From the NCBI GenBank assembly GCA_038844785.1, contig JAWBRA010000013.1, forward strand, positions 1 through 49,218: a stretch of DNA of 49,218 nt, read 5' to 3'. A program made the position numbers and the translations under genes. Position 1 is the stretch's first letter, and each line of letters begins with the position of its first letter. This stretch comes from Candidatus Caldarchaeum sp. (GTDB lineage Archaea; Thermoproteota; Nitrososphaeria_A; Caldarchaeales; Caldarchaeaceae). A model generated the notes under the pieces. It saw only the letters and a list, made by a program, of their open reading frames with translations. It did no database searches and was not told the origin of the DNA. Below are positions 9,450-32,559 of this stretch, piece after piece.

Positions 9450-10771
9450 GGTTCTGAGCTACATAGTCTTAAGTAGACTTGTGTAGCTGTTGGGATTCAC
9501 CAGCCTAGGGCTCCTCACGGGTTCATAGGAGCCTTCATCAGCTCGTTGAAGAGCTTAGGGGATGGGGAAAGCCCCTCCATCTGTAGGTATAGGTTTATGG
9601 CTGCGTTTAGCTGTCTGTTAACCCTCAACCCACATCCCTTACATTCGTATTTTGCTCCTTTCGGGGAATTAGTCATCCCACATCTGGAGCATCTTTTGCT
9701 TGTGTTCTTCGGGTTGAGGGTCATGGTCTTCGACTTGTATGCCATGAGGGACTGTATGGTCTTCCAGTCGCTCTTCGCAACCTGCCTGTTATGTCTCCTT
9801 GAGCTGTTGAACATCCGCTTCTTCTCCAGGCTTTCGAAGCCATGTATGTATCCTTCGTATTCTCTGGTGAGGGAGGTGGTTAGCTTGTGGATGAAGTCTC
9901 TAGCCCTGTTTCTCTCCCTCCTCGAGTATTTGGCTAAAACCCTTCTGAGTGAGGGTTTCTTGGATGCCTTCTTCTGCAGCCTCCCCTCTTCAACTCATAG
10001 ACCCTGTGTATGTGGAGGAGCTCTGTCAAACAGACCGTGACCCAGCCCAGCTTCGGGTTAAACCCATCCAAGCTCCTCTCATTGCAGTCCCATGCGACCC
10101 TGCCTTTTACATCCCCCTCCTTTTCTTTGAACCTGAACGTGACTGTCAGATACTTCTCTCCGAGTATAAGCTCGCCTAACCCTGCTCCCACCCTGTTTGA
10201 AAACCATGCCTTTGAGATGTCGAATTCCAGATACTCTGTATAAGGTTTGACGCTGACCGTTATCCTTCCATCCCTAAACCTATATAGTGTCTTCTTTATT
10301 CTAACAAACCTTTTCTTGACGGTGGGCTTCTCCCCACCCCTCTCACCTCTAACATAATTTCTCCTCCAAGACTTGATGATGCTGTATGCCTGCTTAATAG
10401 CCGAATCGACATAGTGCTTCGAGTAAGCCCAATCCTTCATCAATAAACCCCTTAGGTAATGGTTCTTGAACGCTCCATCTTTAGGTATTATTGGGATGAC
10501 CCTGCGCCTCCCAAGCCTGTTGAATCTCTCAACCCACCTAACCCTAGCCCATATCTCATCTACAGCCCTTTGAAGCATCAGCCTATACGTTTCCAGGAAG
10601 TCTGAAACTTCGTATCCATGCTTAATGTTATATGCTCTAACTTGATATGAGTTGCTCAACACATTCAACGCCCAAGAACCCTCTTAGCCTCTTTGAAAGT
10701 TTCTCCATCAGAAGGCATTACGACTTATAACTAGTTAGGTCTATCCACCCCGAAACTGCTGACCACGGCGT
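9450..10771 (-). mobile_element. Non-autonomous tnpB insertion sequence, probably IS607-derived (copy 1)
   Basis: Contains tnpB. One end begins GGTTCTGA plus a hairpin (9457-9488); the other carries CGAAACTGC (10751). Both motifs recur at the ends of copy 2. Boundaries approximate. Confidence 0.75.
9515..10668 (-). pseudogene. tnpB: TnpB-family RNA-guided nuclease, frameshifted
   Basis: KHYVDSAIKQAY, RuvC-I AWDCN, RuvC-II HGFESL, Zn finger CSRC...CKGC, RuvC-III NRQLNAAIN. One base is missing near 9983-9986 (YELKRR|RLQKKAS). Confidence 0.88.
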
Positions 10772-10890: not shown

Positions 10891-11410
10891 GTGAGTATAA
10901 TAATCGTGAGTATACCTTTCTACGACCGCGAAGAGGAGCTTCAAACCCTCATAGAGGCGGTTGACTCGCCGAGGGCTGAGCTCGTGATAATATACGGTCG
11001 GCGGAGGATAGGGAAGACGACGCTGGTGAGAAGGCTGCTGAGCGATCGGAAGGGTGTCTACTTGTATGTTGAGGTGCTTTCTAAACTGTTGAGAGGTTTC
11101 ATGGTTGGTGTTTACTGGGATAGGGAAGGAGATGAGATTGACGTGGCTGCTATGAGAGACGGGGCAGCACTATTCTTTGAATGTAAAACCGCTGGCGTCA
11201 GAAGAGAAGATGCAGCCCTTTTCAAGGGAAGAGCTGAGCATGTGGCGAAGAAGCTTAACTTGAAGAAAGCGGCAATACTGTTTCTGGTCCCCCAATCATC
11301 TGAGAGAGGTTTACGGGGTGAACGTAATCGGTCTTAGAGAGCTGTTGGAGAAGCCGGACAGGCTTAGGGAGGTGTTAGCGCTGGCTGAGACTAGCCATCT
11401 GAAAACGTAG
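10891..11410 (+). pseudogene. Archaeal ATPase (ATPase_2/DUF234 family), internally deleted and frameshifted
   Basis: FYDREEEL...IIYGRRRIGKT is joined after about 60 aa to the C-terminal YWDREGDEIDVAA...FFECK domain. The tail VYGVNVIGLRELL lies in another frame, ending at 11410. Confidence 0.75.
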
Positions 11411-11510
11411 CGGAGAATGCGATGCCGTAGGGTTTGGAAACATCATGTCAGCCTTGAAATCATTGAGACAGGGCTAAACAGCTAAATGAAGGCCTGGCAC
11501 ATTTTCTGAC

Positions 11511-11592
11511 GCCCCACCACCGCCTTAAGCATCGCCTGAGACACGGTGCATCACCCGTCGATGAAGCGGTGAGTTAGGTGGTGGGGACAACT
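11511..11592 (+). ncRNA. Box H/ACA pseudouridylation guide RNA (single hairpin), predicted target 23S rRNA helix 69
   Basis: 10-bp stem CCCCACCACC (11512-21)/GGTGGTGGGG (11577-86), then ACA (11587-89). Pocket GCCTTAA/GAGTTA. K-turn boxes CTGA (11536-39) and GATGA (11560-64). Confidence 0.8.
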
Positions 11593-11598: not shown

Positions 11599-12384
11599 TC
11601 ACCTGATTTTTTCAACAACGGCCTCCGTATAGAAGTCAAAAAACCTGATATATCCTCTCTTTCGGTAAAACAGTACGCCGATGAGGAGGTCTAGCGGGAG
11701 TAAGAAGATTTTGCCGCCGTTCCTTATGGCTGATTCAATAAGACTAATCTTGGTTCTGTCCACCTTTACAACCCTTATCCCCATCAAATACTTCCCTGGC
11801 GTTTGACCTTTATACGCCTCTAGGACGGTAACAAAGACGTAAACGGCGAAGAATATGTGGGCATAAGTGCCTATAAGACGGAAGACAAGTTCACCGACTA
11901 TGGGTATGTGCTCGTAATGGAAAAGCCATGGATGCCCGGCAGGCACTTCACTGAGATGTGCTATAATCTCTATTATGCTACCCCATAAGAGTGGGTCAAG
12001 AAACACTCCTGAAAATATGAAAAATATGGTCGCATCCACTATGAATGCAGCGATGCGCAGAGCGATTATGTCAGCACTTAGTCTAGGCATTTGTGCTAGT
12101 TGCTCTGCGCTACTCGTCTGCAACGATTCATGCATCGTTTGGAGGGCTCTTATGGCCAGCCTGCCCCTCTCCGAGAGGATGTATGTTCCCTTCGGAGTGT
12201 GATCCAGTAGGTTCTTAAGTCTACGTAGGTGGAAGTTCAGCGTGCCCTCACCTACCTTACAAACCTCAAGCAGGTCGGTGTAAGAAACCTCCACCCTATC
12301 ATACACTGTCTTTAGAATAAGCCGCCTAACACGATGGTTTAACGCTTCAACAATATCTTCTACAGCGTCCTCGAATTCGGTCAC
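11599..12384 (-). CDS. ArsR-like winged-HTH fused to an RDD-family membrane domain
   Basis: ALNHRVRRLIL...GTLNFHLRRL...YILSERG, then RIAAFIVD, GQTPGKYLMGIRVV, IRN, and RFFD (RDD motifs). Confidence 0.85.
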   Translation of the reverse strand: MTEFEDAVEDIVEALNHRVRRLILKTVYDRVEVSYTDLLEVCKVGEGTLNFHLRRLKNLLDHTPKGTYILSERGRLAIRALQTMHESLQTSSAEQLAQMPRLSADIIALRIAAFIVDATIFFIFSGVFLDPLLWGSIIEIIAHLSEVPAGHPWLFHYEHIPIVGELVFRLIGTYAHIFFAVYVFVTVLEAYKGQTPGKYLMGIRVVKVDRTKISLIESAIRNGGKIFLLPLDLLIGVLFYRKRGYIRFFDFYTEAVVEKIR

Positions 12385-12574
12385 GTGTGAGCCACGAGAG
12401 ATGTAGGGGTATCGTATTTTTTAAACTTGGTGACATGAGCCTTTTTGCCTCTGCAACGCCACACCTGTAACGTCTATTTAGAGAAACGTGGCTTGTTTCG
12501 CCTGGTTATCGTTGCCGTATGCGGGGTAAAAACATTCAACAGGAGGCTTCAGCAAACATTTACTGTGAAAAAGC

Positions 12575-13228
12575 ATGAGTGAAAAAGGATCTAGGCTGTA
12601 TGTAGGCTTGGCGACAGCTGCGATAGTTATCTCTTTGATCGTGGCAGCCCAGGCCGTATTGAGCTTGTCTCAAACACAGGCTAGGCAGGACGAGATCGCG
12701 AAGCAAGTGTCAGGTGTTTTGGACAAGCTGGCCGCAGCCGAGGCGCGTCTTAACGACTTGGCGAAACAGATTGGAGAAATAAGAACCAGAACAGAGCCAA
12801 AGCTCCAGAAGCTCACTATACTGTTAGGCGAGGGGAAGATAGTACAAGAGGCTGTGAAAGATCCAGCCACTGGCGAGATCAAGCTTCTACCAGAGGAAAA
12901 AGGTGGTGAAGAGGAGTTAACCGGAGAGTACCACCGTTGGGAGCCGGCTGTGATAATTGTGAAGAAAGGCGATACAGTTGAGCTGACGGTAAAGAACCCC
13001 CGCAAACATGCGCATTCGTTTGTGCTGCCGGCCTTCGGCGTTGATACGGGGAGAATACCCGGTAGAGCTGAGCAGCCAGACGAGGCTAAAAGAACGGTGA
13101 CCGTTAGGTTTGTTGCAGACAAAGCTGGAGTATTCCAGTTTCAATGCGGCGTACCCTTCGACCACGAAAAGGGAGACTGTGACGCCGACCACAATTACAT
13201 GGTCGGATACCTCATAGTGTTAGACTAG
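12575..13228 (+). CDS. Membrane-anchored cupredoxin with a coiled-coil stalk
   Basis: N-terminal TM, coiled coil, WEPAVIIVKKGDTVEL, HSF, ADKAGVFQFQC-x10-C-x3-H-x2-M. Confidence 0.85.
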   Translation: MSEKGSRLYVGLATAAIVISLIVAAQAVLSLSQTQARQDEIAKQVSGVLDKLAAAEARLNDLAKQIGEIRTRTEPKLQKLTILLGEGKIVQEAVKDPATGEIKLLPEEKGGEEELTGEYHRWEPAVIIVKKGDTVELTVKNPRKHAHSFVLPAFGVDTGRIPGRAEQPDEAKRTVTVRFVADKAGVFQFQCGVPFDHEKGDCDADHNYMVGYLIVLD

Positions 13229-13263
13229 CATACGCTATCGGCTTCCGAACGACTCCAAAACGG

Positions 13264-14076
13264 GTGGTTGAAATCGGAAATGCAGCTCCCGCAGGTCGGG
13301 TTGTTTCACGGCGCGAAGCCGTAGCAGGCGGGCTGGCGGCTGTTATAGGGGCTCTTGCCTCATCTTCCATATCCTCCGACTCCGACGCCGTCCTAGAGCT
13401 GGAAGCAACAAAGACAGGCACAGAGGAGAAAAAATGGGTGTTCGTGGTAGACACAGATAGATGCAACGGCTGCATGAAGTGTGTCGAGGCATGTCAGGAA
13501 GAGATGAGAGTGCCTCCCGCCTGGAGTGAACACCAGTACAACGGACGGCAGCCTTGGATAGAGGTCTATAAAGTAGGAGACCATTATCTACCGGTCCTCT
13601 GCCAGAACTGTCAGAACGCCCCATGCGCTAAAGTATGTCCTGTCGGCGCTACCTATTACTCCGAAGACCAGATAGTGTTGATAGACCAAGACAGATGTAT
13701 CGGATGCCGTATATGCATAACCGCATGTCCATACCAGCGTCGGTTCTTCAACTGGTTCGACCCGCCCGCATACGGAGACGAAGCCAGCATCCAATACTCG
13801 CCAGATTACAACATACCACATAGGAGGGGTGTTGTGGAGAAATGCATATGGTGTAGACATAGAATCAAGGAAGGAAGGCTGCCAGCCTGTGTAGAAGCAT
13901 GTACTAGGGCAGGTCATAAAGCGCTGTTCTTTGGAGATGCTTTAGAAAACGTGGTGACGAACGGTGAAGAAAACATAATGTTATCAGAGATGGTTGAGCG
14001 GAGAGGGCCTTATCGTCTCAAAGAGGAGCTGGGGACAGAGCCACGCGTCATCTATCTGCCGCCTAGAGGTGTGTGA
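13264..14076 (+). CDS. Four-cluster 4Fe-4S protein (NrfC/QrcC/DsrO/ActB-FeS type) with a twin-arginine signal
   Basis: SRREAVAGGLAA; CNGCMKCVEAC, CQNCQNAPCAKVCP, CIGCRICITACPY, KCIWC...PACVEAC. Confidence 0.92.
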   Translation: MVEIGNAAPAGRVVSRREAVAGGLAAVIGALASSSISSDSDAVLELEATKTGTEEKKWVFVVDTDRCNGCMKCVEACQEEMRVPPAWSEHQYNGRQPWIEVYKVGDHYLPVLCQNCQNAPCAKVCPVGATYYSEDQIVLIDQDRCIGCRICITACPYQRRFFNWFDPPAYGDEASIQYSPDYNIPHRRGVVEKCIWCRHRIKEGRLPACVEACTRAGHKALFFGDALENVVTNGEENIMLSEMVERRGPYRLKEELGTEPRVIYLPPRGV

Positions 14077-14080
14077 CAGA

Positions 14081-16015
14081 ATGAGTGATACATACTCGAG
14101 GATAGAGAACCTGGTCAGGCCTGTCAAAAGACACAGTCTCCGTTTCTACTTGATCTTTACCTCATTGCTTGCTATAGTGGTGTGGGCGGCATATGCTTGG
14201 ACTGTACAGCTTTCCACAGGTCTCGGGGTTACCGGGTTAAGAACCGTGGTGTGGGGGGTCTACATCATAAACTTTGTCTTCTTCATAGGTATAAGTCATG
14301 TAGGCGCCCTGATCTCCGCAATCCTGAGACTCACCGGCTCAGAATGGAGACGTTCCGTAACAAGGATGGCTGAAACCGTAACGTTTGCATCGCTTTTTGT
14401 AGCCTTGCTCATGCCGCTGATAGACCTGGGTAGGCCGGACAGAGTGCTAAACCTGATCGCCTTTGGCAGGGTGCAATCACCTTTAGTGTGGGACTTTATA
14501 TGTATAGGAACCTACTTCATAACTTCTTCGCTCTATCTATATGTGCCCATGATCCCGGATATTGCTTTCCTCAGAGACACCGTCAGTAATGCGTCACCTT
14601 GGAGAAAGAGGTTCTACTCGTTTCTTTCCTTAAACTGGAGGGGGACGTCCGAACAATGGAATGTTCTTGAAAAGGTCGTGAAGTGGTTGACTGTTCTAAT
14701 AGTGTTTATGGTGATAACTGTACACACGGTGGTTTCATGGGACTTCGCTATGACCTTAAGAGTTGGGTGGAACAGTACAATATTCGGCCCCTACTTTGTT
14801 GCCGGCGCAGTCCTCTCAGGCGTCGCCACAGTCCTGCTTATAATGCTTCTCGCCAGAAATGTTTTCAACCTCCAAAACTTCATCACACATAAACACATCG
14901 ACAACATGGCTAAACTCCTGCTGGCGCTGGATATAGCAGTCATATATTTCACAATAAACGAGCACCTAGTGGTCGGCTACAAGTTTTTGGGCACAAAAGA
15001 GCTCGAGGGGCTCTGGCTCGCGTCCCACTTCTGGGGAGCTTACGCCCCTTATTTCTGGCTGCAAGTAATAGGCGGACTCATCATTCCTGCATTCCTGCTA
15101 GCCATTCCAGCGACCAGAAGCTGGAAGGGCTACGTGGCAGCCGCTATACTCATCAACATAGGCATGTGGTTAGAGAGATGGAACATCATAGTCCCAAGCC
15201 TAGCGCTCCCACAGCTGCCATACCCCAGCGGCACGTACACACCTACATGGGTTGAGCTATCTATAACTGCAGGCGCGTTTTCGCTCTTCGCCCTCATATA
15301 TCTGTCCTTCTCCAAACTCTTTCCCATAATCCCTCTCTGGGAGACGGTTGGACACGAGCATGATGCGAAGAGGCTTGCAGCCACTATTCCAGCCCTAAAA
15401 CTCATAGTACCTCAACCAGAGCGCTTGGAAAAACCTGTTACAGCGGTGTCTAAAAGGGTTCTAGCGAAAGCAGTCATCTGGTCGATGACGGGTTTGGCTG
15501 CAGGCTTGTTAGGCGGACGTTATCTAACGCGTCTAATTACTACGCTGTCAAGCGGTAGCAGGGTCTTTTTTGCTGCGAGGCCCCTAAGCACGTTAGGAAA
15601 TGTAGCAAGCTTGGAGGCGCTCAAGGAGCTTGGAATAAGGGTCGTGAGTAATGAGCCCTTCAACAGGGTCGGCACGCTAGAGCTTGCAGACATACGATAC
15701 AACCCTCAAGCATCTCTAATGTCTCTTGTCTTCCGTGACCCGGAACTACCAAACCTACCAATCTATCAGGAGCCTGTGTCGGCCATTGTCTTCATCCAGA
15801 AGACAGGCGCACCGCTAGCTCCGCCGAAAACGCTGCCAGCATCGGTGGAGAGGGTTCAACTCCGAGGGGGCACAGTAGGTCTGCTAACAAGGAGCACGAA
15901 CCTGCTAAAGCTGGAGACGTACGGAGACGGTTACAAAGTCAGCGTGCTAGCCCAAGCCAGCCCTGAAAAGATGTTCGAGATCATGGGCAGAATTACAGAG
16001 GTGATCATGGGTTGA
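14081..16015 (+). CDS. NrfD/PsrC-family quinol-interacting membrane subunit (ActC-like) with a C-terminal extension
   Basis: WGVYIINFVFFIGISHVG, TRMAE, DLGRP, SPLVWD, VHTVVSWDFA, GWNSTIFGPYFVAGA, GMWLERWNI. ATG 14081 follows GAGGTG and the upstream stop. Confidence 0.92.
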   Translation: MSDTYSRIENLVRPVKRHSLRFYLIFTSLLAIVVWAAYAWTVQLSTGLGVTGLRTVVWGVYIINFVFFIGISHVGALISAILRLTGSEWRRSVTRMAETVTFASLFVALLMPLIDLGRPDRVLNLIAFGRVQSPLVWDFICIGTYFITSSLYLYVPMIPDIAFLRDTVSNASPWRKRFYSFLSLNWRGTSEQWNVLEKVVKWLTVLIVFMVITVHTVVSWDFAMTLRVGWNSTIFGPYFVAGAVLSGVATVLLIMLLARNVFNLQNFITHKHIDNMAKLLLALDIAVIYFTINEHLVVGYKFLGTKELEGLWLASHFWGAYAPYFWLQVIGGLIIPAFLLAIPATRSWKGYVAAAILINIGMWLERWNIIVPSLALPQLPYPSGTYTPTWVELSITAGAFSLFALIYLSFSKLFPIIPLWETVGHEHDAKRLAATIPALKLIVPQPERLEKPVTAVSKRVLAKAVIWSMTGLAAGLLGGRYLTRLITTLSSGSRVFFAARPLSTLGNVASLEALKELGIRVVSNEPFNRVGTLELADIRYNPQASLMSLVFRDPELPNLPIYQEPVSAIVFIQKTGAPLAPPKTLPASVERVQLRGGTVGLLTRSTNLLKLETYGDGYKVSVLAQASPEKMFEIMGRITEVIMG

Positions 16016-16953
16016 AGATCTTATCCGCTACATTGATTATGTTTATCGTCATTTCACTATTTATGGGGGCTGTCATGCTATCGATTCCAGCCGAAGCTAA
16101 GATCGTGGTGAAGGGTGAGAACACATCACCCCTAGTAAAGGAGATTGCAATTGTTGTTTCAAGGAAAGGTTTTAACGGTTCAAGGGACTTGAATATAGAG
16201 GCCAACCAAGGAGACCAGCTACGTTTGGTCTTTCTATATGGGGACGGCGACCTAGAATCTGATAATCCACACAAGATAGAGATAGAAGGCTACAACGTGG
16301 CCGTTGAGATCAACAGGGAGGAGACGATAGGCGTGGTGGAGCTGAAGGCGAACCAACCGGGAACGTTTAAGATAAGATGCGTGCTTAGATGCAGAGGGCA
16401 TGAGAACCTACAGGAAGGCCTTATAAAGGTAAAGGAAGTAGGACAGCTTCCCAAGATCTCCACACTTAAGCTCTCAGCCCAAGAGAATAACGAGACAAGA
16501 ACTTATCTGTTAGTTGCAGAGGCTAGGACAGAAGATGGCCTGCCCGTCCGAGGTGTTCAAATAGAGTTCCTCACCAGCTCATCCTTCGGATACGTCAGCA
16601 TCGGGACCTCAGCCACCAATCAAGAGGGGAAAGCCGTCATGGAGTACAAACCAGTAAAAGCAGGGCCTCTGCAAATCCTAGCGGTCTACAAGGCTGATAA
16701 AACAGTCAACGCAACACTGCCTCTTAACCCAGCTTTCGTCTCTCCTCCAGTTTTACCGTTCGAGCTCTCAGAGGCAAACGTGAGAGGTGAAAATCTGTGG
16801 CCTGACCCGAGGCTTGTAGGAACGCCGGCCAGAGCCAACGCTGTGTTATTGGTTTTATTGGCTGCAGTAGTTCTTACGGCTTGGGGGATTGTGTTATGGT
16901 CTTTCCGCTCAATCATACAGTTAAAACGAGGTGAAACTGTGTATGAACGATAG
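16012..16953 (+). CDS. Secreted, membrane-anchored protein: cupredoxin domain + Ig-like domain + C-terminal TM
   Basis: Signal peptide; NPHKIEIEG...ANQPGTFKIRCVLRCRGHENL; Ig-like GLPVRGVQIEF...TNQEGKA; C-terminal hydrophobic helix. Confidence 0.75.
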   Translation: MKILSATLIMFIVISLFMGAVMLSIPAEAKIVVKGENTSPLVKEIAIVVSRKGFNGSRDLNIEANQGDQLRLVFLYGDGDLESDNPHKIEIEGYNVAVEINREETIGVVELKANQPGTFKIRCVLRCRGHENLQEGLIKVKEVGQLPKISTLKLSAQENNETRTYLLVAEARTEDGLPVRGVQIEFLTSSSFGYVSIGTSATNQEGKAVMEYKPVKAGPLQILAVYKADKTVNATLPLNPAFVSPPVLPFELSEANVRGENLWPDPRLVGTPARANAVLLVLLAAVVLTAWGIVLWSFRSIIQLKRGETVYER

Positions 16954-17407
16954 TCAAAAGATAATGGTCCTGATTCCGCTGATAATCGTGGCTTCAGCAA
17001 TAGCTGTTCTAAGCACTAAAAACGAATCTAGCACCCAGACACTATCGTTAAAAGGCTACAATTTCGGAAACGATCTCGCCCAACTCTCGGTAGCAATAGC
17101 CAACGAAGGAACTGAGCCTGTAACCATCAGAAGCATAAGCGTAGATGGGGTAGAGCTAGGGTTAGGAGAAGCATCCAAGCCAGCTACTTTGGGGACGGGG
17201 CTTAAAGGCTTCTCTGGCAGTGAGCTTGTTTTCGCTCCTTATGGAAAGTGGAGATGTTCTTCAGTAAGCGACGGGAAATGCCTGCTAATGCCTAGGAGCG
17301 TAGTAACTCTTTACCTAGGCATTGGTTGGGAAAGAGGAAAAACCTACGTCATTTCAGTTATAACCGACAAGGGAAACTATTCCTTTCTTTTGAAATCACC
17401 ACCTTAG
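16943..17407 (+). CDS. Membrane-anchored beta-sandwich protein of unknown function
   Basis: N-terminal TM; IANEGTEPVTIRSISVDG and WERGKTYVISVITDKGN resemble archaeal surface/pilin-like domains; translationally coupled. Confidence 0.6.
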   Translation: MNDSQKIMVLIPLIIVASAIAVLSTKNESSTQTLSLKGYNFGNDLAQLSVAIANEGTEPVTIRSISVDGVELGLGEASKPATLGTGLKGFSGSELVFAPYGKWRCSSVSDGKCLLMPRSVVTLYLGIGWERGKTYVISVITDKGNYSFLLKSPP

Positions 17408-17453
17408 GGGCGTGTTGGGTAAATGTTTGACGTCTTATACAGAGCTTGCTTCC

Positions 17454-18137
17454 CTAGTGTGTTGTTAGAGCTTCCCAAAGTATGATTACAGCAACAGCAA
17501 CCATGATAGCTCCAAGCCAAAGCTTCGCCGATGCATGTTTTTCATGAAGTAACCTGCGCATCCTTAGCGCAACATGCTTGTTTGTGCAAGTAACCAGTAT
17601 GGTTATGGCTGGAACTATGAAGAAGGTGTTGTAAAGAAGAAGATAGAAAATCTCCCAACCATTCTGTTTGGAGAGAGTTGACAGGAAAAGTGTGTATATG
17701 CCTCCTGTGCATGCGCAGGGGAAGCTGTGTAATCCTGTGAGCGCGCCTGCCCCGATGAGAGCAGGTATTGCCGCCTTTTTAATGAGCTGAACGGCTCCTC
17801 TCCCCAAGTATGTAGAAACATTGTATACTGGAACTAGGTTGGGTGAGATGTAGTTTACTATGTTAGCAGTTCCTATGAGAATCATAATGGCGGCGCTTAC
17901 TCTAGCCAGCACGTGAGGTGCTGTAGGAAAACCGAAAAACACCGTCAGGAATCCAAGCCCAACCAGAAAATACGTCATATAGATTGAGGCAATGAAAGCC
18001 GCGCCCATTAAAAGAACACGTGTCCTGCCGAGGTTGAAGCTGAACATCAACGATATAAGGAGCGCCACTAGGCTCAGAACGCAGATGTTAAGACCGTCAA
18101 CAAAACCGAGAGGTAGCAAGTATATAGCTTCGGCCAT
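17454..18137 (-). CDS. CcdA/DsbD-like transmembrane thiol-redox protein
   Basis: GFVDGLNICVL and FPCACTGGIY Cys motifs, YLLLYNTFFIVP, about 6 TM. Confidence 0.75.
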   Translation of the reverse strand: MAEAIYLLPLGFVDGLNICVLSLVALLISLMFSFNLGRTRVLLMGAAFIASIYMTYFLVGLGFLTVFFGFPTAPHVLARVSAAIMILIGTANIVNYISPNLVPVYNVSTYLGRGAVQLIKKAAIPALIGAGALTGLHSFPCACTGGIYTLFLSTLSKQNGWEIFYLLLYNTFFIVPAITILVTCTNKHVALRMRRLLHEKHASAKLWLGAIMVAVAVIILWEALTTH

Positions 18138-18242
18138 AGGCGCTACCGATAAACATCTCGTGTTTTCAGCTAAAATAGTTATGCTGAAACAGTCTAGGCG
18201 GTTGAGAATTTCTTATATAATGCCGAGCATAACAAACAGCTG

Positions 18243-18674
18243 TTGAGGCGGAGGAAGAGCCGGCACAGGGAGCATACCTCTCTGCAGCTCATAAAAGCAG
18301 TTATTCCCGCTATTCTGTTTACAGCGTTCATTGTCTGGCTCGTTTTGCCGCAGACGCCTTCTCACCCCTCGATCGTTACGGATACAGGTAGAAAGCCTGT
18401 CCTGAACCCTGAGCTGTTTAGAGGTCTGGTTAAAGACGGGTATTTAACTGCAAAGCAGTATCCCCAGCTTCTAGAGCAGTTGAGATGCTACTGTGGTTGC
18501 GACAACCCTAAGCATACCCCCTACCACCGAAACCTCTACGAATGCTTCACAGACACGCATGGCGCCAACTGCCAGGTGTGTGTCGAGGAGGCGTTGATAG
18601 CCAGAAACCTCTACGAGCAAGGGATGGACCCAGCACAGATTAGAAGCTCAATAGATAAGAGATATGGGTTCTGA
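18243..18674 (+). CDS. PCYCGC-motif membrane-anchored protein
   Basis: LRCYCGC...HRNLYECF...HGANCQVCVEEA...IRSSIDKRY. Confidence 0.85.
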   Translation: MRRRKSRHREHTSLQLIKAVIPAILFTAFIVWLVLPQTPSHPSIVTDTGRKPVLNPELFRGLVKDGYLTAKQYPQLLEQLRCYCGCDNPKHTPYHRNLYECFTDTHGANCQVCVEEALIARNLYEQGMDPAQIRSSIDKRYGF

Positions 18675-18685
18675 GGTGCGGTAAG

Positions 18686-19627
18686 TTGAGCATTAGTTGG
18701 ATAGCCCAGCTCCTTACAGCGCTATGTTTGTCTGTTGTCCTCTTCATTCCTTCAGTTTCAGGTCAGAGCCCAGACATAATAACTGTGTCTACGGGGCATT
18801 CGGTTTACACGCTAGGCGAGATGATCGAAATTAGGGCAGTCTTTAAGGGCGCTACCCATGGGACAATAACCCTAACGTTAACAGACCCGTGGGGAACAGT
18901 GGTTAGGAGTTGGTCTTGGGAACATCTCGGAGGAGATTCATACGAGGCGCGGGCAACCCACGTAGCACGGGACCCTGGTAGGTATGTTATCAGGGCCGTC
19001 CACGTAGGCCATCACGGCGAGCCATCCGTGCAAGACTCTAGGGCTGTATCGGTCTGGAGCGCAAAAATCGCTGGACTGGAATATCCCGGCTACGTTGCCG
19101 TCGAAAGGCAGTTTGACGTTAAAGCCATCGTCAAATACACGTTTAATGAAGAGACCACCATCACGTTAGGCATCTGGGATATCAACTCCAAAAGTTGGGC
19201 TGTGAAAACCAATGACACGTTATCAGGAACGGGTATAAAGGAGTATGTGTTAACACTAAAATCCGCCAACACACCCACAATAATGAACCTCTCAGCCAGA
19301 GTTGAATACATGGTTCCAGGCCGTGGATGGCTACACGATGCAACAAGAGATTGGTACATAGATTTCACAGTCCCGGTCTCAATAAAATTCATAACAACGA
19401 CGATAGCTCAACCTATCACTTACACCACCACCGTCACCACACGTATTCTTCAAACCATTGAATCTACGGTAACACAGGTTAAAATAAATCCCACAACCTT
19501 AACAACGGTCCAGATGATAACGTTTACGAAAACCGTTGAAAGGACAACGATACTACAGGCTCGAGACAATACTTTGATCTGGTGGCTTGCAGCCATAGTA
19601 TTCACTGTTGCGGGCGGGGGCTGCTAG
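18686..19627 (+). CDS. Cell-surface protein with a Thr-rich linker; C-terminal anchor appears frameshifted
   Basis: Signal peptide, beta-rich domains, HVGHH motif, Thr-rich stretch. The TM helix is cut at a G5 run; another frame continues LLVYLRAFRFGRR to a stop at 19677. Confidence 0.7.
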   Translation: MSISWIAQLLTALCLSVVLFIPSVSGQSPDIITVSTGHSVYTLGEMIEIRAVFKGATHGTITLTLTDPWGTVVRSWSWEHLGGDSYEARATHVARDPGRYVIRAVHVGHHGEPSVQDSRAVSVWSAKIAGLEYPGYVAVERQFDVKAIVKYTFNEETTITLGIWDINSKSWAVKTNDTLSGTGIKEYVLTLKSANTPTIMNLSARVEYMVPGRGWLHDATRDWYIDFTVPVSIKFITTTIAQPITYTTTVTTRILQTIESTVTQVKINPTTLTTVQMITFTKTVERTTILQARDNTLIWWLAAIVFTVAGGGC

Positions 19628-19785
19628 TTTATCTTAGAGCGTTCAGGTTCGGGAGAAGGGCTTCAAACAATAGTTAGTTCCATACGATAGCACTGCCGTA
19701 TATGAGTTAAAGATGTGGAAATTAACGCTTAGCGGTATCCAGCTCTTATGAATCTTTTAATATCCTCTCTAACACTCTATGTATC

Positions 19786-20403
19786 ATGCCAATAACCCTC
19801 GATGAAGTCGATGTCGCGCTTGTTCGTGCCCTTGCTGAAGATGGAAGACGCTCTTACCGGCAGCTGGCTAAGATCGTTGGTGTGAGCACTCCTACCGCCC
19901 GTCAACGCATCAAGAGGCTGATGGATATCGGGTTCATCAGGAAGATAGCCCCTGTATTCGATTTGGAGAGGGTTGGGAAATCAGCCTCGGCCATCATATG
20001 TTTAAGTGTAGACGCTATGAGGAAGGAAGAAATCATATCCTATCTATCATCGCTGTCCGAGGTCAGGAACGTGTTTTTGACAGCAGGAGAAACTAACATA
20101 ATCATCAGAGCTACAACCCCCGGTATAACGGAGCTGCAAACGTTCCTAGACACCAAAATACTTAGTCACGCCGGGGTCACCGTCCGTGAAAGTCACATAG
20201 TTATAGCCACCGTCAAAGACGAGCAGGGCGTCCCTCTACAGACTAACATACAAATACGCGTAACATGTGATTATTGCGGAGGAGAAATCCAGGGAACACC
20301 GTTTGTTTTCGAGGTAAGGGGAAAAACAGCATACTTATGCTGTAAGACCTGTCTGACCGCATATAAAGCTAAGCACGCATCAAATATGTCTTCAAAAACA
20401 TGA
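19786..20403 (+). CDS. copR: Copper-responsive Lrp/AsnC regulator with a C-terminal TRASH domain
   Basis: LDEVD...DGRRSYRQLAK HTH; CDYCG...YLCCKTC; upstream of copA. Confidence 0.88.
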   Translation: MPITLDEVDVALVRALAEDGRRSYRQLAKIVGVSTPTARQRIKRLMDIGFIRKIAPVFDLERVGKSASAIICLSVDAMRKEEIISYLSSLSEVRNVFLTAGETNIIIRATTPGITELQTFLDTKILSHAGVTVRESHIVIATVKDEQGVPLQTNIQIRVTCDYCGGEIQGTPFVFEVRGKTAYLCCKTCLTAYKAKHASNMSSKT

Positions 20404-20454
20404 TGCGATTCACTTTTTATTTCATTACGATTGTTAGAAACAAGCCTTTTTGGC

Positions 20455-20468
20455 TTGACAATTGTTAA
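20455..20468. promoter_or_regulatory. Candidate operator palindrome upstream of the copper operon
   Basis: TTGACAATTGTTAA, a near-perfect palindrome about 55 nt before the YHS gene. Confidence 0.3.
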
Positions 20469-20522
20469 CAAGAACTGTAAAATAAGACATGGGCTAGAAG
20501 AACACTGAGGTGGAAGAGAAAG

Positions 20523-20738
20523 TTGTTTGGAAAGAAAGTTAGGGACCCCGTTTGCGGAATGAAAGTAGATAAAGGCAAGGTCGTCTTCAAAAGCAACCAC
20601 CACGGCGTGACATATTATTTTTGCTCTGAACACTGTAAAAATGAGTTCGAAAAAAACCCGGCCAAATATCTGACGGAAGAGCCTGCAGAAACGGCTGGAC
20701 ATCATTCCGGCCATCATTTAGGCGGACATTGTTGCTAG
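20523..20738 (+). CDS. YHS/TRASH-domain copper chaperone with a His/Cys-rich tail
   Basis: DPVCGMKV...YYFCSEHCKNEFEKNPAKY; tail GHHSGHHLGGHCC. Confidence 0.9.
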   Translation: MFGKKVRDPVCGMKVDKGKVVFKSNHHGVTYYFCSEHCKNEFEKNPAKYLTEEPAETAGHHSGHHLGGHCC

Positions 20739-20772
20739 GCTTGTTATGCCGAACATCTATAGGAAGCGGTGC

Positions 20773-20973
20773 ATGATGCTCGAAACCCTGCTGAAGGCTC
20801 TTTGCTTCTTAGCACCATCATCCCTTATAATATCGTTGTTCTACCTGGGGGCACCTTGGTGGTTCCTAATCATGGTTGCTGTAGTCACATGCCCTGTGAT
20901 ACATCTTTTGATGTGGAGGCAGGCTAAGAACAAAATCGATAATTTGGTAAAGAGCAAAGCTGGCACGAGGTAG
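20773..20973 (+). CDS. Small membrane protein (DUF2933-like)
   Basis: 2 TM with CPVIHLLM, resembling the CPxxHxxM motif of cop-associated small proteins; alternative start 20746. Confidence 0.5.
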   Translation: MMLETLLKALCFLAPSSLIISLFYLGAPWWFLIMVAVVTCPVIHLLMWRQAKNKIDNLVKSKAGTR

Positions 20974-20987
20974 GAGGTTAAGCGAAC

Positions 20988-23522
20988 ATGGTGAAGAAGG
21001 AGATTGTCTTACAGATAGGGGGGATGAGCTGCACATCGTGTGCTCAGAGCATAGAGCGTGCGTTAAACAATCTGAACGGTGTGTCGGCTAGAGTGAACTT
21101 TAGCTCTGCAAAGGCCTTTATCAGCTACGACCCGGATAAGACACATCTAGCACAAATAAAGAAAGCTGTAAGCGACCTTGGGTATAGAGTGTTAACAGAC
21201 CAGCTTATCCTCAAAATCGTAGGCATGAGCTGCGCCTCATGCGTCCAAAAAGTTGAGAATGCACTTATGAGTATTGAAGGTGTCTTCGACGTGACAGTAA
21301 ACCTAGCCCTAGGCAAGGCCGTAGTAGAACATGCACCGAACGTCAATGTCTCAGATATTCTTCAAGCTGTGAGAGCTGCAGGCTATGAGGCGTCGGAGGC
21401 TGTTGAAGCTGGGCTTACGGTTGACAAGGAGAAACTGGAGAGAAGGAATGAAATAAAACGTCAGGCAATCAATCTAGCTATCGCAGCCCCCGTAGGAATA
21501 CTTGTCATGCTTGGAGAGTTCCGTATGTACTGGATGCAGTATTTCAACATCCCTGAAATTCTTGGCAACAAATTTGTCCTACTAGCTTTAACCACAATCA
21601 TAATCCTAGGCCCAGCTAGACAGTTCTTCGTAAAATCGTTCAGAGGTCTGATGCATGGTGCCACAGACATGAACCTTCTCTATGCTACGGGCATAGGTGC
21701 AGCGTATTCGGTGAGCGCGTTCAGCACCTTTGTACCTTTCGGAGGAGGGCTGCCGAACGTGTGGTTCGAGGCTTCTGCTCTTCTGACGGCGTTCATAGTT
21801 CTCGGACGGTTCCTGGAAGCGCTTACACGGGGGAGGACGTCTGAGGCTATAAGGAGGTTAATGAGCCTGAAGCCAAAGACCGCAACAGTGATTCGAGACG
21901 GTAAAGAGCTAGAGATTTCCTCCGACGAGGTTGTGGTAGGAGATATTGTCCTAGTAAGGCCGGGCGAAAAGATTCCCGTAGACGGCGTTGTAATCGACGG
22001 CTTCTCGTCTGTTGATGAGTCGATGGTCACAGGCGAAAGCATGCCCGTGGATAAAAACGTTGGAGACGAGGTTATAGGAGCTACGGTCAACAAGACAGGC
22101 TTCCTTAAAATCAAGGCAACCAAAGTAGGCAAAGACACAGCACTAGCCCAAATCATAAACCTAGTGGAGCAAGCTCAGACCTCGAAGCTTCCAATCCAGA
22201 GGCTGGCGGACTGGGTTGCCGGACACTTTATCTTCTCCATTCATGTACTTGCGTTAGCGACGTTCTTATTCTGGTTCTTCATAGGGTATGATGTCTTCTT
22301 CATGCCTAAAGGCGGGGAGGTGTTCGCGGGCTTCTGGTACCGTGCTGCTCCACAAGCCTCTCCAGCAATGGTCGCGTTACTCATCTCGATAGCCGTCCTA
22401 GTCATCTCCTGCCCATGTGCTGTAGGTCTTGCCACTCCATCAGCCGTTATGATGGGGACAGGAAAGGCCGCTGAGAACGGTATTCTGATCAGGGAGGGTG
22501 AGGCCCTAGAAACAGCACACAAGCTCGATGTCATCATCTTCGACAAAACGGGTACCTTGACCAAGGGCGAGCCAGCGGTAACGGATATAGTGCTCAAACA
22601 AGCGGCAGAGATGCTTATAATGGACAACCCCCATCCGTTCAACGAAGAACATCTACTCAGACTGGCGGCAATCGCAGAAAAGAGGTCTGAACATCCGCTG
22701 GCTCAAGCCATAGTGAAAAAGGCCGAGGAAAAAGGGATAGATATACCTGATCCAGAGCTGTTTGAGGCTATCCCGGGACAGGGCGTTAAAGCAGTATACG
22801 ATGGGAAAACAATACTGATTGGTAACCGAAAGTTGATGGCAAGCAATAACGTACAGATAAACGATCTTGTGGATAAGGTTAGCGCTTTAGAGGATGAGGG
22901 GAAAACGGCCATGATCCTTGCATACGGCGGCGTGGCCTTAGGCGTCATAGCCGTTGCAGACACTCTCAAGGAACACTCAGCTGAAGCCGTTGGGATGCTT
23001 CAGAAGATGGGCATTGAGGTGGCTATGCTGACGGGGGATAACAGGAGAACTGCAAACGCTATCGCAAGGCGGCTGGGCATCAAGCGGGTTTTGGCAGAGG
23101 TTCTTCCGGCAGAAAAGGCCGAAGAGGTGAAGAAGCTGCAGATTGAAGGTAAGAAGGTAGGATTCGTTGGAGATGGGATCAATGATGCTCCTGCATTAAC
23201 CCAAGCAGATCTGGGAATAGCTTTGGGAAGCGGTACCGACATAGCCATGGAAGCGGGAAAGATCGTACTCATCAAAGATGATTTAAGGGATGTGGTCAAT
23301 GCTATCGACATCAGCAGGCGAACTATGAGGAAGATTAAGGAGAACCTGTTTTGGGCCTTCTTCTACAACGCCGCCGCAGTACCGCTGGCTATGGGTGTGC
23401 TCTATCCGTCAATGAGCTTTGTGGTAAGCCCTGAGCTCGCAGCGCTGCTTATGGCCATCAGCTCTTTCACCGTGACCATCAACACACTGACGATGAAGAG
23501 GATGAAGCCTAAAGTTAGGTGA
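20988..23522 (+). CDS. copA: Cu(I)-translocating P1B-type ATPase
   Basis: Two GMSCxxC HMA domains, [28 protein letters not shown] and MxxSS ligands. Confidence 0.97.
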
Positions 23523-23527
23523 CGTAA

Positions 23528-23734
23528 ATGGGTCGAATCGCAAGAAAAATTGCTACTGTAGGCTCATGCCTACTCTTAGCCGGCTTCATCGCGACCCTGT
23601 TCGCAGTAGGTGCCCTAAGAACCGGAAAGTACTCGCAGACAGATATTTATTTGGGAACGGTGTGGGTTTTCGTCTTGTCGCTGATTATATCTTCGCCCCT
23701 CCTCATTCCAATGCTGAGGAAGGTGGTGAACTAG
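23528..23734 (+). CDS. Small 2-TM membrane protein
   Basis: Two hydrophobic helices; tightly packed between copA and the next gene. Confidence 0.6.
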   Translation: MGRIARKIATVGSCLLLAGFIATLFAVGALRTGKYSQTDIYLGTVWVFVLSLIISSPLLIPMLRKVVN

Positions 23735-24379
23735 ATGCAGGACTACGGCTATGGGCAGTGGTGGCTCACAGCGTTTAACATAGCTCTGTTCGGAGGCTTT
23801 CTAGCCCTCCTCCCCTATCGTAAAACATCAACGTCTTCACGCCTCACTAAAGGAGTCTTTCTATCTTTTATCATAGCACTTTTCACAGAGATGTACTGCT
23901 TTCCACTAACAATATACATGTTAACTTGGCTTACAGGTTATAAGAATCCATTGACCCATGAGTCAGGGCATATGCTCTATCCCGAGCTTGGAATGCTCTC
24001 TCCACTCCACTTCCTGTCAATCCTAATCATAGGTGGGGGAATACTCCTTATCATCAAAGGCTGGTTAAAGATATACAATGCGAAAGGCTCTCTCGTAACC
24101 GACGGAGTATATTCCTACGTCAGGCATCCGCAGTATCTGGGCATCTTCTTAATGACCTCAGGCTTTCTCCTTCAGTGGATAACAATACCCACAGCCATAA
24201 TGTTCCCCATACTTTTAGTCATGTACTATCGTCTAGCTAAAAGTGAGGAGAAAGAATTGGAAAGAATCTTTGGTGAGGAGTACACGCGGTACAAGCTTGC
24301 TGTCCCAATGTTTCTACCTAGAAGACTTCTCACACTTTTCAAGACTGTTCCCAAGATCTATGAGAGGCGTATTAGATGA
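23735..24379 (+). CDS. Isoprenylcysteine carboxyl methyltransferase-family membrane protein (cop-associated)
   Basis: FIIALFTEMY.FPLTIY, LVTDGVYSYVRHPQYLG, EEKELERIFGEEY. Confidence 0.88.
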   Translation: MQDYGYGQWWLTAFNIALFGGFLALLPYRKTSTSSRLTKGVFLSFIIALFTEMYCFPLTIYMLTWLTGYKNPLTHESGHMLYPELGMLSPLHFLSILIIGGGILLIIKGWLKIYNAKGSLVTDGVYSYVRHPQYLGIFLMTSGFLLQWITIPTAIMFPILLVMYYRLAKSEEKELERIFGEEYTRYKLAVPMFLPRRLLTLFKTVPKIYERRIR

Positions 24380-26478: not shown

Positions 26479-26559
26479 GATTTCTTCGCTTCCCTAATCG
26501 TATAGAGCTTTTCAGACATCATTTAAACATATTTGTTACGAAACTGCCGATTACGTCGT
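25278..26559 (-). mobile_element. Non-autonomous tnpB insertion sequence, probably IS607-derived (copy 2)
   Basis: GGTTCTGA end plus hairpin 25286-25318; CGAAACTGC at 26539; remnant MSEKLYTIREAKK (26519-26481) resembling the N-terminus of an IS607 serine recombinase. Confidence 0.78.
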
Positions 26560-26633
26560 CGGCTGCGGCCTTTTAAACTGTATCTGTTTTTGGGACAATA
26601 TCTTTAAACGTCTGAAACAATTTTTGTCAGGGG

Positions 26634-27097: not shown

Positions 27098-27104
27098 GGT
27101 GACG

Positions 27105-28398: not shown

Positions 28399-28521
28399 GA
28401 CGTCTAAAAACCATGGCGTTGGAATTAAAGATATTCTTAAAAACCTGCGTGGTAATGTCGGAGAATTGTTGCGGAATCGGCGGAGTGTCTGGAACATTAA
28501 AGTCTGTTTTTCTTCCGAGGG

Positions 28522-29313: not shown

Positions 29314-29317
29314 CCTC

Positions 29318-30547: not shown

Positions 30548-30613
30548 CCAAGCTGTTTGACGTGAACGCCGGTATATCGGTTTTCCGGTCAGCCAAAAAA
30601 CCGGGAATAAACA

Positions 30614-32556: not shown

Positions 32557-32559
32557 TGG

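Follow-up and report, generated by a model that had tools for sequence, protein, structure and literature searches.

In this study we describe a five-gene operon at positions 12575-17407 of the forward strand of contig JAWBRA010000013.1 from a Candidatus Caldarchaeum species; this contig was analysed over its whole length of 49,218 nucleotides and is called the window below. The operon encodes two putative copper proteins, which we name Cup1 and CupIg, an exported iron-sulfur (Fe-S) protein of the NrfC type, a membrane protein of the NrfD family whose closest kin is ActC of alternative complex III (ACIII), and a small anchored protein, and it contains neither a heme c site nor a subunit of the molybdenum cofactor (MoCo) type. 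From these sequences we favour, with about even confidence, the reading that this module is a quinol:cupredoxin oxidoreductase, a heme-free minimal ACIII. We infer that its products form one complex, with an electron path, a direction, acceptors and an energy coupling as follows. A membrane complex derived from an ActB2-ActC core, from which ActA, ActE, the ActB1 domain and ActF would have been lost, would bind quinol in an outer-face pocket of its ActC-like subunit and hand the electrons to four Fe-S clusters of the exported NrfC-like subunit. They would then pass to a fixed two-cysteine CuA-like copper centre in CupIg, which would take the role of cytochrome c1 in bc1, and from there to a second, tethered cupredoxin, Cup1, in the role of cytochrome c or auracyanin. 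Cup1 would in turn reduce copper-dependent terminal enzymes, that is, the CuA of heme-copper oxidases and possibly NosZ, and quinol oxidation may couple to proton release or translocation, as in ActC.

The operon and its NrfC-NrfD core

All five genes are read in the same direction and are closely packed: two junctions have gaps of 35 and 4 nt, and at the other two the genes overlap. Cup1 (12575-13228, +; 217 amino acids, aa) is an N-anchored cupredoxin, and the NrfC protein (13264-14076, +; 270 aa) is an ActB2-like Fe-S protein with a twin-arginine translocation (TAT) signal and 16 cysteines in four complete groups. The ActC-like NrfD protein (14081-16015, +) has 644 aa when read from the ATG at 14081; the list of open reading frames (ORFs) gives a TTG at 13994, and we prefer the ATG, which lies 4 nt past the NrfC stop and marks the point where the four archaeal orthologues align. 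CupIg (16012-16953, +; 313 aa), a cupredoxin-Ig protein with a transmembrane (TM) anchor, overlaps NrfD by 4 nt, and the fifth gene (16931-17407, +; 158 aa), which encodes a small N-anchored beta-rich protein, ends the operon. A first-pass annotation made from the letters alone had seen a tight run of cupredoxin, TAT 4Fe-4S protein, NrfD, cupredoxin-Ig protein and anchored protein in this place, and our analysis confirms that run at 12575-17407. The fifth protein has no Pfam or NCBIfam match; its gene stands in all four archaeal loci (32-43% identity) and was seen in archaeal loci only, and its look-alikes in the ESM Atlas are archaeal hypothetical proteins, a few of them with pilin-type N-termini, which we take as a lead only.

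The same annotation had reported that no molybdopterin subunit and no CxxCH protein accompany the module, and both absences hold. A tblastn search of the window with four MoCo subunits of the same genome gave a best E value of 0.055, and the CxxCH motif is absent from all 12 proteins encoded in 11599-23522, that is, from the five operon proteins and seven neighbours. Among the 8041 ORFs of at least 50 aa that were scanned in the whole genome (1.74 Mb in 57 contigs, 95.5% complete), none has two or more CxxCH motifs, and a single motif is found in 15 ORFs of at least 80 aa. The window, which is contig C13 of this assembly, has one NrfD match only, and a MoCo-type gene adjoins each of the five other NrfD loci of the genome.

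The likeness of the NrfD protein to ActC is confirmed. It matches PF03916 with 111.7 bits (cut-off 25.8) over profile positions 7-310 of 313, and with 114.5 bits in a search of its own genome. When phmmer was run against all chains of the PDB, only ACIII subunits were found, with ActC chains, among them those of Roseiflexus, Rhodothermus and Flavobacterium, at the top (6lod_C, 2.5e-64; 6f0k_C, 3.1e-64; 6btm_C, 5.8e-61; 8k9e_C, 1.5e-56) and ActF at 4e-5 to 2e-3, while no PsrC chain appeared at E <= 0.01. The motifs VHTVVSWDFA and SPLVWD, together with a third one, had been quoted in the first-pass annotation as close to ActC, and all three lie within the ActC-aligned stretches. In a review of the NrfD family, the quinol-site residues of Rhodothermus marinus ActC are given as His139, Ser164, Asp169 and Asp253 (PMC8076601). 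In the phmmer alignment these fall on Asp115, Ser133, Asp138 and Asp221 of the NrfD protein, respectively, so that three are identical. Asp at the position of His139 is also recorded in that review for PsrC, QrcD, DsrP and others (PMC8076601), and Asp115, Ser133 and Asp138 are invariant in an alignment of ten NrfD sequences.

The entire mature NrfC protein can be aligned with the B2 part at the C-terminus of ActB (6f0k_B, residues 796-1022; 5.7e-28), and apart from its signal peptide it consists of this Fe-S part alone. Its Pfam match is Fer4_11 (65.8 bits), and its best NCBIfam match is DsrO, with 180.5 bits against a cut-off of 200; the best NCBIfam matches of the core as a whole are DsrO, NrfC, QrcC and DsrP, all of them under their cut-offs. 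The twin-arginine motif is present in 12 of the 12 aligned rows that reach the N-terminus, and the cysteine columns are conserved. The four complete cysteine groups suggest four 4Fe-4S clusters. Four MoCo-linked Fe-S subunits of the same genome begin at their first cysteine group and have no signal; unlike them, NrfC carries its own TAT signal and would thus be exported without a MoCo partner.

The NrfD protein consists of an ActC-like part, about residues 1-430, followed by an extra hydrophobic segment and an alpha/beta domain of about 150 aa (together about 15368-16015). This C-terminal extension is present in all four archaeal orthologues and was modelled by AlphaFold2 (AF2) with a mean predicted confidence (pLDDT) of 72. 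Foldseek found nothing for the model in the PDB at E <= 1e-3, and a VIA comparison gave a best Z of 9.1 (Dip2269), with PsbP-, Mog1- and MucB-type folds at Z 6-9, the PsbP- and Mog1-type chains among them at Z 6-7; an extracytoplasmic position of the domain is a lead from this modelling. We considered whether the extension is homologous to the one found in verrucomicrobial relatives and rejected this, because the bacterial extension is a Big_1 domain with a TM segment and aligns with the C-terminal half of CupIg. By family scans, in which the fifth gene and the extension have no match, no gene of the operon resembles ActD or ActF, and a structural analogue of ActD is conceivable.

The putative copper subunits and the relatives of the module

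Cup1 has a TM segment at residues 10-28, a coiled-coil linker and a C-terminal cupredoxin domain. Its Cupredoxin_1 score is 26.7 bits, against a cut-off of 27, and rises to 28.1 in the genome search, where in-frame neighbouring stretches are included; among NCBIfam models it comes nearest to nitrosocyanin, NirK, the NosZ C-terminus and CoxB, with scores far under the cut-offs. The candidate ligands of a type-1-like site are His147, Cys202, His206 and Met209, with Cys191 in addition. Relatives of Cup1 make up 87 homologous clusters from Nitrososphaerota, Bathyarchaeia and some bacteria, most of them with PF13473. In an alignment of 50 sequences His147, Cys202 and His206 are kept in 50 of 50, Cys191 and Asp205 in at least 90%, and Met209 in the majority; orthologues of Cup1 match a NosZ probe at about 1e-8.

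CupIg comprises a signal peptide, a CuA-like cupredoxin domain, a Big_1 Ig-like domain and a C-terminal TM anchor. The Big_1 match is weak (27.8 bits, under the cut-off of 34.9) and the N-terminal domain has no Pfam match. An AF2 model built from an alignment of 11 rows has a pLDDT of 73 overall and of about 80-86 in both beta domains, and the N-terminal domain of this model has 406 Foldseek matches in the PDB at E <= 1e-3, with copper nitrite reductases, CuA domains, NosZ and multicopper oxidases at the head of the list. Of the single-domain matches, CuA domains are the best: the soluble CuA protein 6ptt_A (TMt 0.63, rmsd 3.4 A over 111 columns), ba3 oxidase subunit II (5ndc_B) and NosZ (1fwx_C, 6y72_A). 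The label cupredoxin-Ig, which had been given from the letters, is therefore right. The candidate metal ligands are arranged as His87 ... Cys123-x3-Cys127-x2-His130-x3-Gln134, and the archaeal and two metagenomic CupIg proteins keep His87, Cys123-x3-Cys127, His130, Asn132, Leu133 and Gln134. A profile search of 1.84 billion representative sequences returned 4323 proteins at E <= 1e-3, of which 143 at 1e-30, many being long Big_1 repeat proteins; a word-index protein search had found 6 relatives only, which the profile search shows to be a limit of sensitivity. A family set of 69 was formed from the window protein and 68 end-to-end matches of 270-480 aa among the best 150. All 69 members of this set retain His87, Cys123 and Cys127; at position 130, 40 have His, 28 have Met and 1 has Asn, and Gln134 is found in 50. 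The canonical CuA pattern is C-x3-C-x3-H-x2-M. Judged by sequence, the CupIg site is a conserved putative metal site that resembles CuA and is not identical to it.

A three-chain structure prediction was made with NrfD 1-440, NrfC 41-270 and CupIg 28-313 as partner. It scored 0.51, compared with a best value of 0.31 in three controls; the runs share at least 60% of their contacts and the partner has a pLDDT of at least 70. Of 80 solved complexes, 58 reach the mark used for such predictions, as do 2 of 110 mismatched pairs, and scores of 0.60 or less belonged to 7 of the 80 solved complexes and to both mismatches that reached the mark.

The nearest public relatives come from metagenome-assembled genomes of Caldarchaeales/Nitrososphaerota. 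With one genome scanned per species, four archaeal loci (L007-L010) were found, whose NrfD proteins match that of the window from end to end at 59-71% identity. The gene order does not vary among the four: a divergent ArsR-RDD regulator, Cup1, NrfC, NrfD, CupIg and the fifth gene. The next relatives, at 46-49% identity, belong to Verrucomicrobiota, Planctomycetota and Chloroflexota and have NrfC-NrfD without a MoCo gene; after their NrfD come a Big_1 part with a TM segment (fused or separate), then a monoheme cytochrome c of class I, and lastly a porin-like protein. A scan of metagenomes added 79 loci, many of which have a MoCo-less NrfC-NrfD pair followed by CupIg-like, Big_1, Cup1-like or cytochrome c genes. 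The bacterial-looking contig L191 has the order NrfC-NrfD-CupIg-Cup1 (31% identity for CupIg, 42% for Cup1), a cupredoxin directly follows NrfD in L131 and L132, and upstream genes encode tandem cupredoxins in L172 and L175, a plastocyanin-like protein in L147 and a DOMON+Big_1 protein in L131. Genes of a Big_1+cytochrome type occupy equivalent positions in other loci. The first-pass annotation had made the proposal depend on a conserved adjacency of the cupredoxins, and this adjacency is found in all four archaeal relatives and in L191.

Phylogenetic analysis separates the window protein from the MoCo-linked members of its family. A FastTree phylogeny was built from 162 NrfD rows, taken from every locus whose NrfD ORF reaches 400 aa, from the window, from two true ActC proteins and, as outgroup, from two paralogues of the same genome; the true ActC rows come from L212 and L213, loci with ActB-ActC-ActD-ActE, and L014 stands outside both of our trees, its gene order being read separately. 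The window falls in a clade of 56 rows (support 96) without a single MoCo-linked row; the 71 MoCo-linked rows, together with both true ActC proteins, are confined to a sister clade of 96 rows (support 95), and eight flavobacterial rows form a third group. In an IQ-TREE analysis (LG+G4, short search), for which 45 of the 162 rows were chosen by hand so as to cover the groups, 23 MoCo-less rows lie on one side of a branch with SH-aLRT 89, and 17 MoCo-linked rows stand together with the 2 ActC rows (SH-aLRT 96). Thus a molybdoenzyme, which had been named as the partner that homologous loci might consistently carry, adjoins no row of the clade, and the two trees agree in setting the window apart. 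By these alignments the window NrfD belongs to a sister lineage of ActC, outside the group of true ActC.

Further observations were made beside these trees. An apparently split NrfD in L010 (7992-9886; ORFs of 416 and 238 aa) was considered as two separate genes and this was rejected, since the 238-aa ORF starts inside the NrfD C-terminus; the frameshift lies inside a conserved C-terminal helix region and could be an assembly error or mark a pseudogene. Ten loci of Flavobacteriaceae (L072, L074, L075, L077, L080, L082, L083, L086, L210, L211) have tandem modules of a hexaheme protein, a protein of about 290 aa, NrfC of about 327 aa and NrfD of about 440 aa, which form a tree clade of their own, apart from the true ACIII that these genomes also have (L213). 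Loci L017-L071 and many of L134-L208 have an ActC-like NrfD with a true MoCo-type subunit and multiheme cytochromes, in two large groups, one with the order c4-c2-MoCo-NrfC-NrfD in Chloroflexota and the other with c5-MoCo-NrfC-NrfD-c4 in metagenomes, and true ActC nests among them in both trees. In the bacterial MoCo-less modules of L013-L015, L173, L198 and L199, the gene after that of cytochrome c encodes a porin-like outer-membrane protein (388-475 aa), and a small cytochrome c of lipoprotein type comes next; this layout may form an outer-membrane electron conduit.

The neighbourhoods of the 56-row clade were counted in 37 loci with at least 1200 nt after NrfD. A small carrier candidate was found in 27 of the 37 (19 have a monoheme cytochrome c downstream, 9 another cupredoxin and 5 a CupIg with the copper motif), a separate CupIg/Big_1 gene in 15, and an NrfD longer than 600 aa in 10. 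Such varied carriers at the same positions suggest that the redox heads are interchangeable, as expected of an electron-output module. In this family the core is accompanied by small high-potential carriers and by an Ig-like anchored subunit able to hold a redox head; in the archaeal version both partners are putative copper proteins. A broader interpretation, which we put forward as a tentative possibility, is that the module is the archaeal, all-copper member of a widespread unnamed class of quinol oxidoreductases, built from a MoCo-less ActB2/ActC-like core, an Ig-like anchored scaffold and an exchangeable head that is a two-cysteine CuA-like domain, a DOMON domain or a cytochrome c. In archaea without cytochromes c it would then serve as a heme-c-free, copper-only wire from quinol to oxidase, possibly translocating protons and switched on with the copper supply.

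Genomic setting and competing explanations

The respiratory setting offers several candidate partners. The genome encodes NosZ, has heme-copper oxidases at three loci and gives 13 cupredoxin matches, and the CxxCH scan of its ORFs found no multiheme or recognisable c-type cytochromes, which suggests that copper carriers are the periplasmic currency of this organism. Two of the oxidase loci lie in the window, and their products are candidate acceptors. The first locus encodes, on the minus strand, a blue copper protein like sulfocyanin (30614-31081), a divergent subunit I of a heme-copper oxidase (31078-32556), whose COX1 profile score is only 120 bits, and a 204-aa protein (32560-33174). The second encodes a sulfocyanin-like protein (39174-39647, -), a heme-copper oxidase subunit I (39927-42290, -), a CuA-bearing COX2 protein (42269-43027, -) and one more cupredoxin (43123-43674, +). 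The divergent oxidase is found in 10 of the 76 genomes of the class, and about 2.4 kb of its segment (about 30648-33045) is missing in G009 and G004. A 1004-aa ORF at 46205-49216 runs off the contig end.

The immediate surroundings of the module belong to a strain-specific segment. Upstream, a divergent membrane regulator (11599-12384, -) combines, by Pfam and NCBIfam scans, an ArsR/DUF7347-type helix-turn-helix with a C-terminal RDD domain (RDD 50.3 bits, DUF7347 20.2 bits; the NCBIfam model HTH_metalloreg gives 20.6 bits, under its cut-off of 55). Its orthologue stands divergently beside Cup1 in all four archaeal loci and about 3 kb upstream in L130, and no inverted repeat, sought as a regulator-binding palindrome, was seen in the 190-bp divergent promoter region. 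Downstream and convergent lies a six-TM protein like those of the DsbD/CcdA clan (17454-18137, -), for which a Pfam scan found nothing at E <= 1; its ESM Atlas look-alikes, with DsbD_TM in 10-79% of members, and a structure match of TM 0.64 are leads. An anchored CYCXC/PCYCGC protein follows (18243-18674, +; PF13798 52.8 bits; NCBIfam CYCXC 106 bits, cut-off 90), and after it a copper cluster with a CopR-like Lrp/AsnC-TRASH regulator (19786-20403, +), a YHS-domain protein (20523-20738, +) and a P-type ATPase (20988-23522, +) that we read as CopA, since it has two CxxC sites near its N-terminus and matches the L008 gene at 72%.

Together with an ORF at 18686-19627 and three or four further genes, these neighbours and the module make up a strain-specific island of 15 kb (11600-26670), which is missing from G009, the closest same-genus genome. 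There, the sequence matching window 11064-11590 (G009:C31 11441-11969, 96%) and that matching 26670-30647 (G009:C31 7370-11333, 96%) lie 108 bp apart, compared with about 15 kb in the window. The whole segment is absent from all 12 congeners, save for distant CopA and CYCXC matches elsewhere, and the stretch 11600-21600 in particular has no DNA match in these 12 genomes except one of 72% to the CYCXC gene. The GC content is 0.45-0.50 in the island and 0.50-0.54 in its flanks. Between the PheRS genes and the island sits a split TnpB/Cas12f-like element (9450-10766, -) with ORFs of 244 aa (9934-10668) and 99 aa (9515-9814), the latter with a Cas12f1-like TNB zinc-ribbon domain (51.3 bits); this TnpB-type element is absent at the same site in G006 and G009.

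The first-pass annotation had seen CcdA-like and PCYCGC genes following the run. The PCYCGC family assignment stands and CcdA stays a lead, but membership in the conserved module does not: within 8 kb of the module in the four archaeal relatives, the DsbD-like gene is found in none and the CYCXC gene in one. That one, in L008, is the only other copy and adjoins TRASH and CopA genes, and among L007-L010 only L008 has genes for CopA, TRASH, CYCXC and Lrp-TRASH proteins no more than 7 kb from the module. Both neighbours, the DsbD-like and the CYCXC gene, thus belong to the island and not to the conserved module. In this genome without cytochromes c the DsbD-like protein adjoins the CYCXC protein, and the two may be a thiol-reducing pair for copper-site cysteines or copper handling.

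Several observations weigh against the module being a quinol:cupredoxin oxidoreductase. In the core, Asp221 is found only in the archaeal rows and is replaced by Ile or Leu in the bacterial relatives, and the C-x3-C-x2-H-x3-Q site of CupIg departs from the canonical CuA pattern. The three-chain prediction, which the first-pass annotation had proposed as a check on the complex, lends weak support to the NrfD-NrfC-CupIg assembly. In the class, the module is patchy, with a full-length CupIg in 5 of 76 genomes and in 1 of 13 of its own genus, and the divergent oxidase tracks it only in part (3 of 5 module genomes versus 7 of 71 others; the genomes are kin, and we take this as a lead). Cytochrome b is found in 51 of the 76, including all five module genomes, and NosZ in 13 of the 76, with both NosZ and the module only in G000, the genome studied here, and G033. 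Copper-efflux genes lie near the module in the window and in L008, L012 and L014, and the island is shared with CopA.

Since the module is patchy and all five genomes that have it keep cytochrome b, it is not needed for respiration in this lineage. The earlier suggestion that it could stand in for bc1 is therefore rejected for the lineage; the module is an accessory branch and not a replacement for the conserved cytochrome b complex. NosZ as a dedicated partner was rejected on the counts just given. Cytochrome b (465 aa, C6:15867-17264) and a TAT-Rieske protein (273 aa, C16:16901-17722) are lone genes at separate loci of G000, and two families of the class keep cytochrome b by vertical descent. 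A NosZ cluster at C6 3500-10700 of G000 (NosZ 701 aa, with a TAT signal) includes cupredoxin-like genes (169 and 212 aa) and a 500-aa membrane protein; this NosZ is 98-100% identical in G006 and G034 and is absent from most of the genus.

The module shares its island with CopA, YHS and CopR-like genes, so a role in copper homeostasis is a live rival, although we regard it as unlikely. Here NrfC-NrfD would link the quinone pool to copper ions instead of a respiratory acceptor and would be expressed with CopA. The cupredoxin subunits could oxidise toxic Cu(I) without oxygen, as a counterpart of CueO/PcoA that is possibly driven by the proton motive force via NrfD, or they could reduce Cu(II) to Cu(I) for chaperones. 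Apart from the single island with Lrp-TRASH, YHS, CopA, CYCXC and DsbD-like genes and the recurrence of such genes around the module in L008, this role is favoured by two bacterial relatives with CusA-type resistance-nodulation-division (RND) pumps of 1134 and 1061 aa just upstream, by a His-rich CopA 4 kb downstream in L014, and by the patchy, island-borne distribution typical of resistance determinants. Cuproproteins, however, often adjoin copper-handling genes merely from needing copper, and efflux genes are found in 3 of 55 tree-clade loci besides L014 and the window, many of the contigs being short. The conserved divergent regulator has an ArsR-type helix-turn-helix, a class that often senses metals, but its match lies below the cut-off. 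CopI-, PcoA- and CueO-type proteins have Met/His-rich Cu(I)-binding stretches, and neither cupredoxin of the module shows one on reading its sequence. Moreover, the relatives with monoheme cytochromes c, DOMON or plastocyanin-like proteins have electron carriers at these positions and not copper-ion oxidases.

The proposed direction of electron flow can also be reversed, giving a cupredoxin:quinone oxidoreductase in which the proton motive force would drive electrons uphill from a donor at the outer face, such as Fe(II), to the quinone pool, a reading that we consider distinctly improbable. Such a run has a parallel in the uphill branch from rusticyanin to bc1 of acidophilic iron oxidisers, and high-potential carriers such as cupredoxins and monoheme cytochromes c are typical of lithotrophic electron entry. 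The module stands beside a porin-like outer-membrane protein flanked by small cytochromes c in L013-L015, L173, L198 and L199, and NrfD-family subunits are proposed as ion-translocating modules in the NrfD-family review (PMC8076601). Against this, the conserved archaeal operon holds no candidate primary oxidase for an inorganic donor, and characterised ACIII is a quinol oxidase (PMC7439408). The forward direction would have obvious customers, because three oxidase loci and NosZ need reduced copper carriers. A further reading, that the NrfC-NrfD pair is an orphan membrane anchor serving a molybdoenzyme or other enzyme encoded elsewhere, with the cupredoxins as unrelated neighbours, we hold to be very improbable indeed. 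NrfC/NrfD pairs usually anchor a catalytic subunit, and further MoCo-type matches lie on contigs C28 and C8 of an assembly that is 95.5% complete in 57 contigs. But none of the 56 clade rows has an adjoining MoCo gene, NrfC has its own TAT signal where the four MoCo-linked Fe-S subunits of the genome have none, the cupredoxin genes directly adjoin or overlap those of NrfC and NrfD and are conserved along with them, and the candidate metal-ligand residues of CupIg are kept in 69 of 69 rows. The quinol:cupredoxin oxidoreductase thus stays our favoured reading; as for the first-pass proposal of this activity, its architecture and its ActC kinship stand, and the function itself is what we infer.

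Comparison with known systems

A full-text literature search, to which subscription-only papers and supplements were beyond reach, found no published description of such a system; two papers that it returned (PMC12341060 and PMC5244752) proved irrelevant, and a review of the NrfD family mentions copper 0 times (PMC8076601). The earlier claim of an undescribed system is thus upheld as far as the description goes, but not for quinol:cupredoxin activity as such: ACIII with the cupredoxin auracyanin as acceptor is established in Roseiflexus and Chloroflexus (PMC7439408), and reduction of auracyanin by ACIII is also reported in PMC10873879. The novelty lies in an architecture that has lost the MoCo-like domain and every heme and includes a built-in copper subunit.

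The significance of the module would lie in several points, if our favoured reading is true. It would be a third solution beside bc-type complexes and canonical ACIII, and would show that the ActB2/ActC core is portable and can take on interchangeable redox heads. It would establish, too, a new conserved copper site of His, Cys-x3-Cys, His/Met and Gln, shared by at least 68 further sequence clusters that are annotated with at most a weak Big_1. To our knowledge, the route from the quinone pool to copper enzymes in archaea without c-type cytochromes is poorly resolved and is an open point for the copper-rich Nitrososphaerota. If the module instead serves copper homeostasis, it would be an oxygen-independent, quinone-linked copper redox system, which would be new as well. 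The system is small, with five genes and two separately expressible soluble copper domains, so the claim is directly testable.

Among known systems the closest is the ACIII of Rhodothermus, Flavobacterium, Roseiflexus and Chloroflexus, with which the module shares an ActC-like quinol subunit and an ActB2-like, TAT-exported, outward Fe-S module. In contrast to ACIII, it lacks the pentaheme ActA, the monoheme ActE, the MoCo-like ActB1 domain and the second NrfD-like subunit ActF, and no ActD homologue was detected in it. ACIII has one [3Fe-4S] cluster (PMC7439408), whereas all four cysteine groups of the module are complete, and His139 of ActC is Asp in the module NrfD. The module has in addition a two-cysteine cupredoxin-Ig-TM subunit, the C-terminal domain of NrfD and the small anchored protein. 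Because it lacks four defining features of that complex (ActA, ActE, ActB1 and ActF), we do not file it as ACIII.

The NrfABCD, QrcABCD and DsrMKJOP complexes likewise combine a TAT Fe-S protein with a cofactor-less NrfD protein and connect the quinone pool with periplasmic carriers. Their partners are multiheme cytochromes c, with a MoCo-like subunit in Qrc, whereas those of the module are copper proteins, and the module is much nearer in sequence to ActC than to the Nrf, Qrc and Dsr complexes. Geobacter Cbc-type complexes are likened to NrfCD-type quinol modules with cytochrome partners. Complex iron-sulfur molybdoenzymes of the Psr, Ttr and Dms types also have an NrfD-family subunit (PF03916) and a four-cluster Fe-S subunit, and the genome has five such loci. 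In these enzymes the TAT signal is borne by the catalytic molybdopterin subunit, which the module lacks, its Fe-S subunit having a signal of its own.

The putative copper subunit CupIg shares with the CuA domains of oxidase subunit II and NosZ the fold and the ligand order His ... Cys-x3-Cys ... His. It differs from them in its C-x3-C-x2-H/M-x3-Q spacing, with Met for the second His in 28 of 69 sequences, and in its fusion to a Big_1 domain and a C-terminal anchor, and, unlike CuA domains, it is not part of an oxidase or reductase. The job that we propose for the module, from quinol through a tethered blue copper protein to a heme-copper oxidase in an archaeon lacking soluble cytochrome c, is the same as that of archaeal chains of Rieske protein, cytochrome b and sulfocyanin, such as SoxLN-CbsAB and SoxE of Sulfolobales. 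Their machinery, however, is unrelated to Fe-S plus NrfD proteins, and this genome has both, with sulfocyanin-like genes beside both oxidases of the window.

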